From positions 529,838-553,837 of the forward strand of contig NZ_JBHSCR010000003.1 of assembly GCF_042651265.1 (NCBI RefSeq): 24,000 nt of DNA, in the 5' to 3' direction. The notes below the pieces were generated by a model. The model did not search any database, was not told where the DNA came from, and was given only the letters and a program-made list of their open reading frames with translations. Source of the DNA: Kordiimonas lipolytica. Lineage in GTDB: Bacteria > Pseudomonadota > Alphaproteobacteria > Sphingomonadales > Kordiimonadaceae. Every line of letters starts with the position of its first letter. The first letter of the stretch is position 1. Positions 12,850 to 18,914 of this stretch are shown here, piece by piece. Made by a program: the position numbers and the translations under genes.

Positions 12850-12873
12850 GACGGAAGAGCAGCCCCTCTGTGA
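12850..12873 (-). promoter_or_regulatory. ECF-like promoter motif copy P8: TCACAGAGGGGCTGCTCTTCCGTC (minus strand)
   Basis: Same TCAC-N16-CGTC geometry as the seven plus-strand copies. It lies in the 167-bp gap upstream of the 12032..12724 gene, about 125 nt before its ATG. Confidence 0.5.
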
Positions 12874-12891
12874 AAAAGAAATTTGGAAGAT

Positions 12892-13179
12892 CTAGCTGCC
12901 GCCGCTATCCGAACCGGTGTCGGATCCCGTGGGCGGTGTGTTGCTCTTGATGATCTCAATCGTCTTGTCGATCATGGTCTGCTGCAGCTTTTTCATGTCC
13001 ATGGTGACATCGGGCGGCACCACATTCTGCTTCAGCAGTTTCTGGATCTCGGCGTCCGCTGCCTCGACGAAATCGACAATGCTTTTCTGAATGGCGGCCT
13101 CGACTTCCGCGGTGCCCTTGAGGCCTTCATCGATCATTTTCGCGATATCCTCGGGGCTTGGGCTTTCGCTGTCTGCCAT
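12892..13179 (-). CDS. Hypothetical small acidic protein (95 aa)
   Basis: Strong AAGGAGG RBS upstream of ATG 13179. Helical acidic sequence with a Ser/Gly/Thr/Asp tail (...TPPTGSDTGSDSGGS). It is divergent from the reb array. I recognise no family. Confidence 0.6.
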   Translation of the reverse strand: MADSESPSPEDIAKMIDEGLKGTAEVEAAIQKSIVDFVEAADAEIQKLLKQNVVPPDVTMDMKKLQQTMIDKTIEIIKSNTPPTGSDTGSDSGGS

Positions 13180-13316
13180 GGTGGCCTCCTTTCGCTGGGT
13201 GATTTGACCTAAGACGCAGCGGCGGCGGAATTGGGAAGTGAAATCACGGTTTTTTGCCGAAAAGGGCTGAAAGACGTGCTATAAGTGTATTATCAATATC
13301 AATAGGAGAATATTCT

Positions 13317-13814
13317 ATGGTTGATAAAAAGTCTGCCAACCAAACCCCATCCGGGGAACCACAAGACCAGCCAGAAGACCATGTCGATGCCCTGTCACAG
13401 GAAATCGCCAAGCTTTTGTCCAGTCTTGTGGGTACAGTCAAGTCCGCCTCCGGTGACGGGGAGGGCAAAGCTGGCCAGGAAGCGCTCTATGTGGTTATAG
13501 AGCTCATTCAGGCGCTTTTGAATGACATCAAGGCGCATGAAAAACCAACGCTTGCTGACCGCATCCTTACAGTGATTGCGGAATGGAAGCTGGTTATGGC
13601 CGCGGGGAACACCCTCGATATGTCAACTGTCTACAGCCAGTCCGAGCACTTGATGAAGAAGCTCGATAGCGTGGCTGAAGGAGCAACCAAAGCGGGCATT
13701 GTTGATATCTATGCCTATGGTGGCACAGCTGCCGAAAACGCGATGGCGGTGCTGATGGAAACAGTCCATCTGAAGCCTAAACCCATCGTGGTTCCGAAAA
13801 CAGAAGCCCACTAA
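13317..13814 (+). CDS. Hypothetical protein (166 aa), first plus-strand gene of the reb region
   Basis: AGGAGA RBS upstream of ATG 13317; the track ORF starts earlier, at 13254. Acidic N-terminus followed by a helical body. A hairpin AAGGGGG-N20-CCCCCTT plus TTTC follows the stop (13829-13864). I recognise no family. Confidence 0.6.
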   Translation: MVDKKSANQTPSGEPQDQPEDHVDALSQEIAKLLSSLVGTVKSASGDGEGKAGQEALYVVIELIQALLNDIKAHEKPTLADRILTVIAEWKLVMAAGNTLDMSTVYSQSEHLMKKLDSVAEGATKAGIVDIYAYGGTAAENAMAVLMETVHLKPKPIVVPKTEAH

Positions 13815-13945
13815 AAGCGGGTAATGGCAAGGGGGTTTATGGTTGGCGGACGAGGCCCCCTTTTCATAGAATAGTCTTTTGGTCATGCATGCGGGCCTCA
13901 AAGGCACGCAACACCAGCTAAAAGCTTGGCATCATTTTTATTTTC

Positions 13946-13969
13946 TCACAAACCTGAGGTTGGGTCGTC
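13946..13969 (+). promoter_or_regulatory. ECF-like promoter motif copy P1: TCACAAACCTGAGGTTGGGTCGTC
   Basis: TCAC-N16-CGTC, 76 nt upstream of the ATG of rebB paralog 1. Confidence 0.55.
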
Positions 13970-14045
13970 GTATGCGGGAGACGTATTCGTGCCCCTGCCG
14001 GGGTGCCTGGTCTCACCCCAATTTAGTTTTTGAAGGAGAAAAGAC

Positions 14046-14375
14046 ATGGCAATGCCAACCGCGGTGAACAGCCAAATCACAGATTCAGTGTCACAGGCAA
14101 ATGTGGAAGTATTGGGCAGTTCGCCTGCGATGGGGATGGGGGCGATGTATCAATCGCTTGGCCATTCGACGGGAATCCTGTTTGAAAACAGTGTAGGCGC
14201 CCAACAGCAACTGGCGATCGCCGCTCAGTCTGCTGCCAACCAGGGTGTGATCCAGATCTACAGCGTTAATACCATGGCCGGTGCGACCGCCGCGGCCAAG
14301 ATCGCCAACAGCGACACGTCTGAGACCATGATGTCTCTGATGACAGCGCTCAAAGGTGTCGAAAGCGTCAGCTAA
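14046..14375 (+). CDS. rebB: RebB-family R-body protein, paralog 1 (109 aa)
   Basis: MAMPTAVNSQITDSVSQANVEVLGSSPAMGMGAMYQSLGHSTGILFENSVGAQQQLAIAAQSAANQGVIQIYS... carries the VNSQITD.VTQ.NVKVLG..PA.A.G..YQ signature of the RebB / 'killing trait' family (Caedibacter R-body subunits). AAGGAGA RBS. Confidence 0.85.
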   Translation: MAMPTAVNSQITDSVSQANVEVLGSSPAMGMGAMYQSLGHSTGILFENSVGAQQQLAIAAQSAANQGVIQIYSVNTMAGATAAAKIANSDTSETMMSLMTALKGVESVS

Positions 14376-14456
14376 CCTTCCCCCGCCTTGGCGGTAGGCG
14401 GGCTCCTTTTCTTATCTTGGAAGGTCATAGGCACTGGGTTTGAGACTTGAGAACCA

Positions 14457-14489
14457 CTGGCGGCGCATTGCGTCGCCAGTTTTCGTTTT
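14457..14489 (+). terminator. Intrinsic terminator after rebB paralog 1
   Basis: CTGGCGGCG-cattg-CGTCGCCAG (one mismatch) followed by TTTTCGTTTT. A weaker CCCGCC...GGCGGG hairpin plus a T-rich run lies at 14382-14412. Confidence 0.65.
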
Positions 14490-14541
14490 GGCCCGATGCG
14501 AACCGCTAATGCCCTCATTGAGAAAAAACAAACACGCCATG

Positions 14542-14565
14542 TCACAAAATTTTACGTGCGGCGTC
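14542..14565 (+). promoter_or_regulatory. ECF-like promoter motif copy P2: TCACAAAATTTTACGTGCGGCGTC
   Basis: TCAC-N16-CGTC, 78 nt upstream of ATG 14644. Confidence 0.55.
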
Positions 14566-17459: not shown

Positions 17460-17478
17460 CAGGGTGCAATTTCTTTGT

Positions 17479-17502
17479 TCACATTCGCCGGACCAGGGCG
17501 TC
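17479..17502 (+). promoter_or_regulatory. ECF-like promoter motif copy P6: TCACATTCGCCGGACCAGGGCGTC
   Basis: TCAC-N16-CGTC, 64 nt upstream of ATG 17567. GTTCACAT is shared with P5. Confidence 0.5.
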
Positions 17503-17566
17503 ATGAATGAAGTAAGGATCATTAGCTGGAGACGTTGCCCAGGCAACGTGGCAAGAGGGAAGAAAG

Positions 17567-17893
17567 ATGGCTATTCCGACATCAGTTAACGGGCAGATAA
17601 CAGACTCTGTTACCCAGTCGAACGTCGCAACGCTTGCGGCGGCCCCTTCAATCGCGATGGGTTCGATTTACCAGAGTGCCGCCCACTCCAGTAGCATTCT
17701 TTATCAGAATGCAGTGATGCAACAGCAGCAGAATGCCATCTGTGCCCAGGCCGCCGCGAACCAGGGCGTGATACAGATCTATAGTGCCAACTCAATGGCT
17801 GCCGCCGCGGCGGCAAGCAAGGTAGCGCAATCGGATACCGCGACAGAGATACTGACCATGCTGGTCGTACTCAAGGCGTTGGGGTCCCTCTAG
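17567..17893 (+). CDS. rebB: RebB-family R-body protein, paralog 8 (108 aa)
   Basis: MAIPTSVNGQITDSVTQSNVATLAAAPSIAMGSIYQSAAHSSSILYQNAVMQQQQNAICAQAAANQGVIQIYSANSMAA.... GAGGGAAG RBS. Confidence 0.85.
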   Translation: MAIPTSVNGQITDSVTQSNVATLAAAPSIAMGSIYQSAAHSSSILYQNAVMQQQQNAICAQAAANQGVIQIYSANSMAAAAAASKVAQSDTATEILTMLVVLKALGSL

Positions 17894-17931
17894 AATAACC
17901 CGATAATAACTAGATAAATAGGTTCAGGACC

Positions 17932-18162
17932 ATGGCAGACAATACACCAGTAAATTCACAGATTACAGATGCTGTCACCCAGAATAACGTGAAGGTGGTA
18001 GCGGAAGCGCCGGCGCAGGCCATGGGGCTTGTCTACCAGACGATGGCGCATTCCATCAGTTTGTCCATGCAGAATGCCCAGCAGGCGCAAGGCGGACTGC
18101 AGCAGATCGGCAACGCGGTGACGTCTACGGCGATCACCATGATCCTTGGGGTGGCCAAGTAA
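17932..18162 (+). CDS. rebB: Short RebB-family protein, paralog 9 (76 aa)
   Basis: MADNTPVNSQITDAVTQNNVKVVAEAPAQAMGLVYQTMAHSISLSMQNAQQAQGGLQQIGNAVTSTAITMILGVAK has the same architecture as paralog 7. Confidence 0.8.
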   Translation: MADNTPVNSQITDAVTQNNVKVVAEAPAQAMGLVYQTMAHSISLSMQNAQQAQGGLQQIGNAVTSTAITMILGVAK

Positions 18163-18222
18163 GCCAAGGGGCAAGAATATCACGGGTCGTCGCGCTGACT
18201 GATCACAACCGGGAGCAGGAAA

Positions 18223-18654
18223 ATGGCGGGAAATGAAGGCAAGAAGAAAAAGGAAGGCGAACCTGAAGCACCGGAAGGCAATTCAGATTCGGTAGATACC
18301 AGCGCACTGAACCCGATGATTGTCCAGGCGGTGGACTATACCAATTCGGTCATCGGCTCATCCGTCAGTGTGGAAGCGAACGGGATCGCGTATCAGAAGG
18401 TGGCGCAGGCAACCGCTTTTTCGGTTCAGGATGCCACAGACTATCTGCGGAACATGATGGCCATGGCTGGCGCGGCCCAGGGCGTGGCGCTTGAGAAAAT
18501 GATTGAGGCAGCCGCCATTCCGGACACCACAAAGATAGACGCATACCAAACTGTATTGTCCGCGGCGCAGGCTGCTATCACAGCGGCAGAAACGGTCTTC
18601 TCAGATGTGGGGTCTGACGCTGGCACAATAGCGAGTGACTATCCCAAATCCTGA
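18223..18654 (+). CDS. Divergent RebB-like protein with charged N-terminal extension, paralog 10 (143 aa)
   Basis: ...LNPMIVQAVDYTNSVIGSSVSVEANGIAYQKVAQATAFSVQDATDYLRNMMAMAGAAQGVAL... follows the RebB core spacing (I..AV...N......[small]......YQ...). It is the last gene before a strong terminator. Confidence 0.55.
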   Translation: MAGNEGKKKKEGEPEAPEGNSDSVDTSALNPMIVQAVDYTNSVIGSSVSVEANGIAYQKVAQATAFSVQDATDYLRNMMAMAGAAQGVALEKMIEAAAIPDTTKIDAYQTVLSAAQAAITAAETVFSDVGSDAGTIASDYPKS

Positions 18655-18692
18655 CACTCAGGGTTGCCTGATCCATCGTTACGCCTGGTAAA

Positions 18693-18717
18693 GCAGCCCG
18701 CTATGGGCTGTTTTTTT
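18693..18717 (+). terminator. Intrinsic terminator closing the reb array
   Basis: CAGCCC-gctat-GGGCTG perfect stem followed by TTTTTTT (18711-18717). Confidence 0.8.
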
Positions 18718-18890
18718 ATGTCTATGCTTCAAAAACTCTCAGAATCGTGCATTATCGCAATAGTTGAGTAACTTCTTTTGCGGCAAAAATCTGCTGAAGT
18801 TCCAAAAAGCTATATAAAAATAAATTAAACCAATATGTTAAATGGATATGGTGTTAGAGGTTCTATGTTTAGAGTGATAAAATTCTAGCT

Positions 18891-18914
18891 TCACGGAACG
18901 CAATTACTGCCGTC
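18891..18914 (+). promoter_or_regulatory. ECF-like promoter motif copy P7: TCACGGAACGCAATTACTGCCGTC (candidate autoregulated sigma promoter)
   Basis: TCAC-N16-CGTC, 51 nt upstream of ATG 18966 of the ECF sigma gene. It also contains GGAAC, the common ECF -35 core. Confidence 0.55.

Follow-up and report, generated by a model that had tools for sequence, protein, structure and literature searches.

The window described here is a stretch of 24,000 nucleotides (nt) from the alphaproteobacterium Kordiimonas lipolytica (assembly GCF_042651265.1, contig NZ_JBHSCR010000003.1, positions 529,838 to 553,837 of the forward strand). It carries a cluster of R-body (reb) genes and, at 18966-20072 on the plus strand, a gene for a sigma factor of the extracytoplasmic function (ECF) type. 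R-bodies are large protein ribbons, which extend to rupture host membranes. A short bipartite motif, TCAC-N16-CGTC, stands before the genes of this cluster, and these sites are very probably promoters that are read by RNA polymerase with the sigma factor of 18966-20072. In the proposed mechanism, sigma region 4 would contact TCAC(AA) as the -35 element, and region 2 would contact CGTC(W) as the -10 element. The two are 16 nt apart here and 17 nt apart in some lineages, and transcription would begin a few bases past CGTC. The genes so controlled would be six reb transcription units, two divergent units of unassigned genes, the sigma gene itself and, by homology, a large operon for a protein with an HExxH motif. 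As each unit has its own copy, one factor could switch on the whole R-body cluster, and the copy before the sigma gene would provide positive feedback.

The original prediction, made from the sequence of the window, had already read these sites as ECF promoters. This reading is supported by the bipartite and asymmetric shape of the motif, its limitation to N16 and N17, its place as the top pattern in an unbiased enumeration, its conservation in synteny, the autoregulatory site and the co-occurrence with the sigma gene. The regulon that it proposed, with reb genes, sigma gene and one divergent gene as members, was correct but incomplete, as it lacked a gene for a protein of 95 amino acids (aa) and, by homology, the operon that runs from 20249 to beyond 24000.

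Motif sites in the window

An exact search of the window for TCAC-N16-CGTC gave eight matches, all at the coordinates that had been predicted. The chance expectation, taken from 100 dinucleotide shuffles, is 0.72 (at most three in any shuffle), which agrees with the 0.7 estimated earlier. As had also been claimed, all the copies are intergenic, and each is oriented towards the next gene. Non-coding DNA makes up 16.9% of the window, and the probability that eight of eight sites would lie there is about 7e-7. No further exact copy was found by this search within the coding sequence of the window. Sites with N17 are not present in the window, and its N15 sites sit inside genes.

On the plus strand, the putative promoter of reb1 (TCACAAACCTGAGGTTGGGTCGTC, 13946-13969) lies 76 nt before the ATG at 14046. 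Those of the next three genes lie 78 nt before reb2 (14542-14565; ATG 14644), 83 nt before reb3 (15174-15197; ATG 15281) and 76 nt before reb4 (15717-15740; ATG 15817). Two further putative promoters precede groups of genes, one at 16323-16346, 98 nt before the ATG of reb5-reb6-reb7 (16445), and the other at 17479-17502, 64 nt before the ATG (17567) of reb8-reb9 and a gene for a 143-aa protein. A putative autoregulatory promoter, TCACGGAACGCAATTACTGCCGTC, is located at 18891-18914, 51 nt before the sigma ATG at 18966. On the minus strand, the exact match TCACAGAGGGGCTGCTCTTCCGTC at 12873-12850 stands 125 nt before the gene for a 230-aa protein, and it has a syntenic counterpart before the homologous gene in locus L002 (3785-3808, minus strand; L numbers denote the loci compared below). 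The range of 51-125 nt from CGTC to ATG given in the original prediction is correct; the four distances that it placed at 76-82 nt are 76, 76, 78 and 83 nt, a counting difference of one. The sub-patterns that it described, TCACAAA(C/A) in four copies and GTTCACAT in two, both hold.

A weight matrix built solely from the sites of other genomes was then used to scan the window. It retrieved all eight exact sites, with the top score in the window, 23.1, at reb2, and it added a ninth at 13236-13213 on the minus strand. This variant, TCCCAATTCCGCCGCCGCTGCGTC, departs from the motif at one base of the -35 element, and the 95-aa gene starts 33 nt further on; like the exact sites, it is non-coding and points at the gene that follows. 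Its score of 15.9 is inside the range of the eight exact sites. The variant TCCCAA-N14-CGTC is also present in L002 (4150-4173, minus strand), ahead of a syntenic gene of 96 aa and with a different spacer, and the ninth window site is therefore counted as real. The only other matrix hits, two weak ones at 9470-9447 and 5864-5841, were rejected as chance, because they lie within genes of the metallo-beta-lactamase-fold and metH types.

Conservation of the motif in other genomes

For comparison, 84 loci were collected around homologues of the sigma factor, and Reb open reading frames (ORFs) were marked in them with a hidden Markov model (HMM) made from the window's own Reb proteins. Two sets were compared against a first-order Markov expectation, 56 non-redundant loci with linked reb genes (1.086 Mb) and 27 sigma loci without reb genes (0.433 Mb). 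The reb-linked loci hold 260 exact N16 sites against 42 +/- 7 expected, and the reb-less loci hold 16 against 10.3. Per locus, there are mostly three to nine exact sites when reb genes are present and none to two when they are not. Among the 260 sites, 148 stand no more than 300 nt ahead of a Reb start, at a median distance of 80 nt, and another 37 stand ahead of the sigma gene. A further 43 or so precede recurrent unannotated proteins of the cluster, such as a protein of ~550 aa in 14 Thalassospira loci. The remaining sites, around 32, are singletons within the chance expectation, and those that were checked fall inside ordinary genes. Apparent singleton targets, such as a DnaE fragment, a histidine kinase and a solute-binding protein, were rejected as chance sites within housekeeping genes.

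The spacing of the two halves is strict. In 393 reb upstream regions, N16 occurs 148 times and N17 37 times, with only zero to two cases at each other spacing from 12 to 20; the N17 spacing is found in Rhodovibrionaceae, in Nisaea and at some Kordiimonas sites. Each half also predicts the other, as TCACAA alone leads to CGTC at the right distance in 128 cases, and CGTCWW alone leads to TCAC in 113. An anchor-free enumeration of all pairs of 4-mers separated by N(14-18) ranks TCAC-16-CGTC first in the window (eight of nine upstream regions). It ranks the same pair first in 384 independent reb upstream regions, with 141 cases against 9 in the antisense direction. The two bases after TCAC, which were not selected for, are A in 93% and 90% of the sites, and A or T is enriched after CGTC. 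The consensus is therefore written as TCACAA-N14-CGTCWW, with a T-rich tract ahead of it.

The motif is found at syntenic positions in genomes whose sigma factors are just 40-65% identical, the cores being fixed and the spacers diverged. It also precedes genes other than reb, namely the sigma gene, the 230-aa and 95-aa genes, the gene for the large HExxH protein and, in L003, a gene for DNase II. One exception to spacer divergence is the reb1 promoter, where the full 24-mer, spacer included, is identical in the window and in L002 (at 4778), although the two sigma factors are 65% identical; in L003, the core alone is kept at this site. The reb1 spacer holds a palindrome, AACC-TGA-GGTT, which is conserved in both (window 13946-14045; L002 4778-4880), and so is the end of the 5' untranslated region (UTR) of reb1, CCAATTTAGTTTTTGAAGGAGA. 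These elements could be the site of an extra regulator, or an RNA element, peculiar to the first reb gene.

Association of the motif with reb-linked sigma factors

Not every reb cluster has a linked sigma gene, and the motif follows this difference. Six clusters were examined over 16 kb each, those of Azospirillum, Caedibacter pKAP298, Eleftheria, Bealeia, Ralstonia and Vibrio. They have no related sigma factor in that span, and none of their 40 reb ORFs has a motif site upstream. Four other clusters, from Ruegeria, Burkholderia, Chromobacterium and Trinickia, encode a different, short ECF sigma factor behind a Crp/FNR regulator. This short type is 24-26% identical to the sigma of the window, yet each of the four clusters has at least one (T)TCAC-N16-CGTC(C) directly before its reb and cluster genes. 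With the motif absent from the sigma-less clusters and present in the short-sigma ones, it can be said to track the reb-linked ECF sigma factor in two distant sigma lineages. Motif and reb-linked sigma factor occur together in Alphaproteobacteria, in Betaproteobacteria (Burkholderia, Chromobacterium, Trinickia) and in a myxobacterium.

The shared layout identifies the Ruegeria and Burkholderia clusters as the same type as that of Pseudomonas aeruginosa PA14, for which experiments are available. In PA14, the rebP1 promoter requires the ECF sigma factor of the cluster, FecI2, together with RcgA, and it fires in 0.26% of cells (Wang et al. 2021, PMC8322103). RcgA (PA14_27700) is a regulator of the Crp/FNR type encoded 66 bp upstream of the sigma gene, FecI2 being PA14_27690 (Feinbaum et al. 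2012, PMC3406104). FecI2 was further shown to bind and induce its own gene and PA14_27680 (Schulz et al. 2015, PMC4362757, suppl. Table S6). The window resembles this system in that a sigma factor encoded in the reb cluster is needed for the PA14 reb promoter and acts on its own gene, and the clusters of PA14 layout carry the same motif before reb and cluster genes as the window does. It differs in several respects. No Crp/FNR gene is present in the window (no protein with a cNMP_binding or HTH_Crp domain); the sigma factor has 368 aa against ~185 aa in the short type, owing to its N-terminal extension; and each major reb gene has a promoter-like site of its own, instead of being grouped with others under a few operon promoters. 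A profile search with the sigma alignment, as well as a search seeded with the Burkholderia short sigma, returned no Pseudomonas protein.

A separate form of control is known outside these clusters. In Azorhizobium caulinodans, the reb operon is reportedly repressed by PraR and activated by RebR. Control there thus differs from that proposed for the window, being exerted by transcription factors with no dedicated sigma factor, and the motif is missing from the clusters of Azospirillum, Eleftheria and Ralstonia, where no sigma gene is linked. What the two would have in common is tight transcriptional control dedicated to the R-body genes, for which Akiba et al. 2010 is cited in PMC3377617.

Evidence against the promoter assignment and alternative readings

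Classic ECF promoters have the form AAC-N16/17-CGT, as in TGAAAC-N16-CGTA for SigW of Bacillus subtilis, with SigX alike, and GGAAC-N16/17-CGTT for EcfG. The sites of the window share with them the bipartite -35 and -10 arrangement, the CGT core of the -10 element, a distance of 16-17 nt between AC and CGT, a strong specificity with a correspondingly small regulon, and a sigma factor that would regulate its own gene. They differ in the -35 element, which is TCACAA here against G/TGAAC, in the -10 element, which is CGTC followed by A or T, and in that no recognisable anti-sigma factor is co-transcribed with the sigma gene.

Several points weigh against the assignment of the sites to the sigma factor of 18966-20072. 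The -35 sequence TCAC is not the canonical GAAC. The motif of FecI2 was described as AT-rich, with no obvious match to TCAC-N16-CGTC (Schulz et al. 2015, PMC4362757), and the experimental precedent of PA14 is tied to the window by synteny alone, through the order of Crp/FNR regulator, sigma and reb genes. Two gammaproteobacterial metagenome-assembled genomes (MAGs), L043 and L046, encode a sigma factor ~44% identical and eight or nine reb ORFs, and they have no clear TCAC-N16/17-CGTC upstream of reb; the motif may have changed in this lineage. In some loci of high G+C content, a few exact sites could be chance. Finally, the sigma factor of 18966-20072 is tied to the motif by correlation, and the support as a whole is comparative and not experimental.

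This last point leaves room for the possibility, which we consider unlikely, that the sites are real ECF-type promoters read by a sigma factor encoded elsewhere, such as EcfG, the general-stress sigma factor of Alphaproteobacteria, the local one having other targets or acting further upstream. EcfG promoters share the geometry of the motif and resemble it in the -10 element, the tie between local sigma and motif is not experimental, and the window and most loci cover ~20 kb per genome. The distribution of the motif argues otherwise. It follows the reb-linked sigma factor across Alphaproteobacteria, Betaproteobacteria and a myxobacterium, which include classes without EcfG, and it is absent from sigma-less clusters even in the alphaproteobacteria Azospirillum and Bealeia. 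It also stands before the local sigma gene in 53 of 55 loci. As for EcfG itself, the fourth base of the -10 element is C, and not T, in the 128 sites that were anchored on TCACAA alone.

Quite improbable is a second alternative, in which the motif would be the operator of a DNA-binding activator or repressor, for example a small protein of the cluster. The two half-sites bear no relation to each other and form no palindrome, the orientation towards genes is strict, a single extra nucleotide of spacing is all that is tolerated, and the spacer is otherwise free. The distances of 33-125 nt to the start codons are in keeping with a core promoter, and so is the T-rich tract immediately ahead of the sites. 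Besides the sigma factor, no protein with a helix-turn-helix was found in the window's cluster, though several of its proteins are of unassigned function. Clusters of the PA14 type do need a Crp/FNR regulator besides the sigma factor (PMC8322103), and the conserved palindrome within the reb1 spacer would also suit an operator.

The weakest alternative, that the recurrence is a functionless relic, left when reb genes were duplicated in tandem along with the DNA ahead of them, or mere chance, can be dismissed as very improbable: the reb genes are indeed tandem paralogues, and four sites share TCACAAA(C/A), yet an alignment of the nine window sites with 40 nt of flank on each side left TC.C and CGTC alone invariant and nothing alignable outside the eight core bases, the motif also stands before genes non-homologous to reb, its cores are fixed between genomes in which the spacers diverged, and chance predicts 0.72 sites in the window against the eight observed and 42 in all loci against 260. 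A duplicated segment is thus rejected by the alignment and was already contradicted by the data.

Predicted transcription units and putative autoregulation

If the sites are promoters for the sigma factor of 18966-20072, the cluster can be divided into units. The family scans confirmed the gene content that had been predicted, namely an ECF-type sigma factor and nine paralogues of the RebB family (PF11747, E 2.5e-27 to 4.7e-5), which lie on the plus strand between 14046 and 18162. In order, reb1 to reb5 are located at 14046-14375, 14644-14970, 15281-15606, 15817-16146 and 16445-16750, and reb6 to reb9 at 16785-17150, 17229-17459, 17567-17893 and 17932-18162. They are followed by the gene for the 143-aa protein (18223-18654), the last of the reb8 operon. 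The genes that begin at 16785 and 17229 trail the preceding gene by 34 and 78 nt and have no site of their own. With gaps of 34-78 nt, these two, as well as the genes beginning at 17932 and 18223, were assigned to the unit of the gene before them. The predicted plus-strand units are thus reb1, reb2, reb3 and reb4 singly, reb5-6-7, reb8-9 with the 143-aa gene, and the sigma gene.

On the minus strand, two units are predicted. One is the 95-aa gene (12892-13179), whose protein is of unassigned function and which is the target of the variant site. The other is a divergent operon (11039-12724) encoding the 230-aa protein, which is rich in glutamate (12724-12032), and a 317-aa protein (11992-11039), both without family matches; this operon is probably driven by the site at 12873-12850.

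Hairpins followed by T-runs, which resemble terminators, are located after reb1 (14382-14402 and 14456-14480) and after the 143-aa gene (18690-18714), the last of which sets the end of the reb8 operon. Similar hairpins can be read from the sequence after reb3 and reb4. A scan of 8.5 kb for sigma-70 promoters gave three matches against 4.1 expected, none at the motif sites, and no convincing housekeeping promoter was seen at the reb genes. The region 12000-20500 has no match to an RNA family in Rfam, so that the conserved 5' UTRs correspond to no known riboswitch or leader.

The prediction that the sigma gene regulates itself is supported by the site at 18891 and by its counterparts in other loci. 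An N16 site precedes the sigma gene in 37 of 56 reb-linked loci, and when N16 or N17 is allowed, 53 of 55 loci have one. The latter count takes a site up to 1.5 kb upstream of the sigma domain that cannot be attributed to a reb gene, for which chance would give ~0.05 per locus. In L001 and L002, the counterparts of the window site are at 1150 and 9929, respectively. The sigma promoter reads TCACAA in most lineages and TCACGG in the window, L001 and L002, and this TCACGG form may be weaker than the reb promoters.

The ~240 nt at 18655-18890, which separate the sigma promoter from the terminator behind the 143-aa gene, are unusually AT-rich for a window of 57% G+C. They could hold sites for a first, sigma-independent expression of the sigma gene.

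We infer the sigma factor as reader of the sites, the start positions and the feedback behaviour. Control would probably be exerted through the N-terminal extension of the sigma factor, which is conserved and mostly disordered, or through the making of the first sigma molecules, or both. It may be speculated that positive feedback without an anti-sigma factor could underlie the all-or-none expression in rare cells that was reported in PA14.

The sigma factor and its relation to group ECF237

The sigma factor (368 aa) matches the Pfam families Sigma70_r2 (PF04542, residues 205-274) and Sigma70_r4_2 (PF08281, residues 311-361), as well as TIGR02937 (sigma70-ECF), with a score of 74.9 bits against a cut-off of 42.9. 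Regions 2 and 4 together span ~195-365, and regions 1.1 and 3 are not present. In accordance with this, an AlphaFold2 (AF2) model of the full protein has two helical sigma domains. They are preceded by an extension of ~195 aa (residues 1-193, encoded at 18966-19545), which AF2 predicts to be disordered (predicted local distance difference test, pLDDT, below 50) except for helices at 116-151. The first residues, MxRHGxVP, are conserved among homologues, which supports the start codon at 18966 and makes the extension a part of the protein. Further conserved islands are NVxxLF, W..HPITKAL, NPxQIIAxS and PIRPxP, separated by variable sequence rich in proline, glutamate and glycine, and the short predicted helices coincide with the HPITKAL and QIIAD islands. 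No docking of the extension on the sigma domains is shown by the AF2 model. Conserved islands within a disordered extension suggest a regulatory tether or a region for binding a partner. In the alignment of homologues, cysteines C216 and C264 are invariant, and C331 is nearly so.

Homologues are found in Kordiimonas, Thalassospira, Nisaea, Tistlia, Magnetovibrio, Caulobacterales, Rhizomicrobium, Vineibacter, myxobacteria, many cyanobacteria and Entotheonella, and a Kordiimonas MAG stands closest to the window, its sigma domain being 92% identical. The sigma gene is monocistronic and faces a convergent neighbour, and among the neighbouring proteins, several of which are of unassigned function, none matches an anti-sigma family.

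These features recall the group ECF237 of Casas-Pastor et al. (NAR 2021; preprint 10.1101/2019.12.11.873521), which is spread over Proteobacteria, Cyanobacteria and a small number of further phyla, Tectomicrobia among them, and has no anti-sigma factor. Its proteobacterial members have 2.4-6.75 RebB genes beside them, a subgroup carries an N-terminal extension of ~220 aa, and characteristic cysteines were described (10.1101/2019.12.11.873521). The sigma factor of the window is alike in taxonomy, its homologues occurring in Proteobacteria, many cyanobacteria and Entotheonella (Tectomicrobia). It is alike in its neighbours, with nine RebB genes in the window and five to eleven in most of the related proteobacterial loci, and no anti-sigma factor is recognisable beside it. 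The protein itself has a similar extension, ~195 aa here against ~220 aa in the subgroup, a pair of cysteines in region 2 and cysteines in region 4. It thus matches the description of ECF237, the comparison having been made with the published description of the group rather than with its HMMs.

A difference lies in the promoter. According to the entry for ECF237, there is no conserved promoter and no autoregulation (10.1101/2019.12.11.873521, supplementary text), whereas the reb-linked members compared here have a conserved TCACAA-N14/15-CGTC before the reb genes and before the sigma gene as well, in the proportion given above. For the reb-linked clade, the entry is contradicted by these putative promoters. 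The earlier negative result likely arose from the small number of sequences and from the pooling of cyanobacterial members that have neither the motif nor reb genes, and start codons were possibly mis-set because of the extension. The main text of Casas-Pastor et al. (NAR 2021) also raised the idea that the sigma factor could be under the control of proteins with a RebB domain. The sites before the reb genes argue for the opposite direction, in which the reb genes would be targets of the sigma factor. No later paper was found in the literature searched that defines a promoter for ECF237 or for R-body genes.

Significance and candidate effector genes

Control of reb genes by an autoregulated ECF sigma factor with a small, cluster-local regulon is already known. 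The principle being established, the advance made here is incremental and not conceptual. What is new is the promoter motif, its near-universal presence before the sigma gene, its sharing by two distant reb-linked sigma lineages, and the list of co-regulated genes. We know of no account of reb regulation outside Pseudomonas and Azorhizobium, nor of the identity of the toxin that accompanies R-bodies.

The promoter signature would correct the public ECF237 entry, and it gives a simple sequence rule by which genes expressed together with R-bodies could be listed in dozens of bacteria from sea and soil. The proteins that these genes encode are mostly unannotated, and a few resemble nucleases, proteases or lysins. 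The sigma-promoter pair is compact and probably orthogonal to other pairs, and it could serve in reporters or synthetic circuits.

A wider proposal, which as a whole is possible but rather doubtful, takes TCACAA-N14/15-CGTC as the shared R-body promoter of two anciently diverged sigma lineages. The complete regulon could then be read from sequence, including its non-structural partners (the HExxH protein and DNase II as candidate toxins, and phage lysozyme for lysis). In addition, an autoregulated sigma factor with a disordered extension and no anti-sigma factor may form a bistable switch behind the expression in rare cells of PA14 and in the 'bright' cells of Caedibacter.

The first of these partners is encoded by the predicted regulon operon at 20249-24000 on the minus strand. 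It comprises the gene of a large protein with an HEVGH motif, which extends from 21222 to beyond 24000, where the frame is still open at the window end, and the gene of a 310-aa protein (21181-20249). The large protein is 56% identical to the 1360-aa protein of L001. In relatives, it has 1360-1385 aa, internal repeats and a C-terminal HEVGH motif like that of zinc proteases (L001 2577-7615; L005 1099-6197). Neither it nor the 310-aa protein has a Pfam match, and its C-terminal part has no match among PDB sequences. Both close relatives, L001 and L005, have the motif before the homologous operon. In L001, it lies at 7705-7728 (minus strand), ahead of the 1360-aa homologue, and in L005 at 6264-6241 (minus strand), 43 nt before an ORF of 1380 aa that is followed by one of 310 aa. 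On this ground, 20249-21181 and 21222 to beyond 24000 are predicted to belong to the regulon, and a tenth promoter is predicted ~1.4 kb past the window end, before this operon. For the same reason, the large protein is a candidate R-body-associated effector.

Other candidates come from related loci. In L003 (Kordiimonas sp., 2796-3923), TCAC-N16-CGTC lies ~50 nt before a DNase II gene (PF03265) at the edge of the reb cluster, and an acid nuclease of eukaryotic type under the same control as R-bodies would be of interest as a possible toxin. Among the short-sigma clusters, a gene for phage lysozyme is located inside the reb cluster of Chromobacterium (L089, 11842-12282) and of Trinickia (L090, 13567-14069), with a motif-like site upstream, which is GTTCACACGCCGGCCCCCCGTCCGTT in L089 and has N17 spacing at 13567 in L090. 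This arrangement suggests that cell lysis is co-regulated with R-body synthesis in these clusters. The large HExxH protein, DNase II and the phage lysozyme are thus candidates for the toxin or the release functions that go with R-bodies. Searches of the non-reb target proteins against Pfam, NCBIfam and PDB sequences gave no match other than DNase II in L003.

Neighbouring genes and further observations

No Pfam or NCBIfam family matches the 143-aa protein encoded last in the reb8 operon, which has syntenic counterparts of 134-203 aa in L001, L002 and L003. It may be a very divergent Reb paralogue, judging by eye from the pattern ..VQAVDYTNSVIG...AYQKVAQA... in its sequence. Divergent from the 95-aa gene, a gene for a 165-aa protein (13317-13814) is kept in L002 and L003 and has no motif upstream, and a conserved ATGCTATAAGTGTATT stands immediately upstream of its ribosome-binding site. 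The 165-aa protein may be expressed independently of the sigma factor, and it could be a regulator of the system.

Directly downstream of the sigma gene in the Kordiimonas loci L003 and L004 (11369-21173), a small phage-like element was observed, with Rep_1, a P2-type capsid, a holin like that of gene transfer agents and a hydrolase. The element differs between these two otherwise near-identical assemblies. In the window itself, an IS3-family transposase is encoded at 1261-2384 in two overlapping frames (rve, rve_3, HTH_21), and it adjoins housekeeping genes, namely mlaA, an ArsR-methyltransferase fusion, MTHFR and a split metH.

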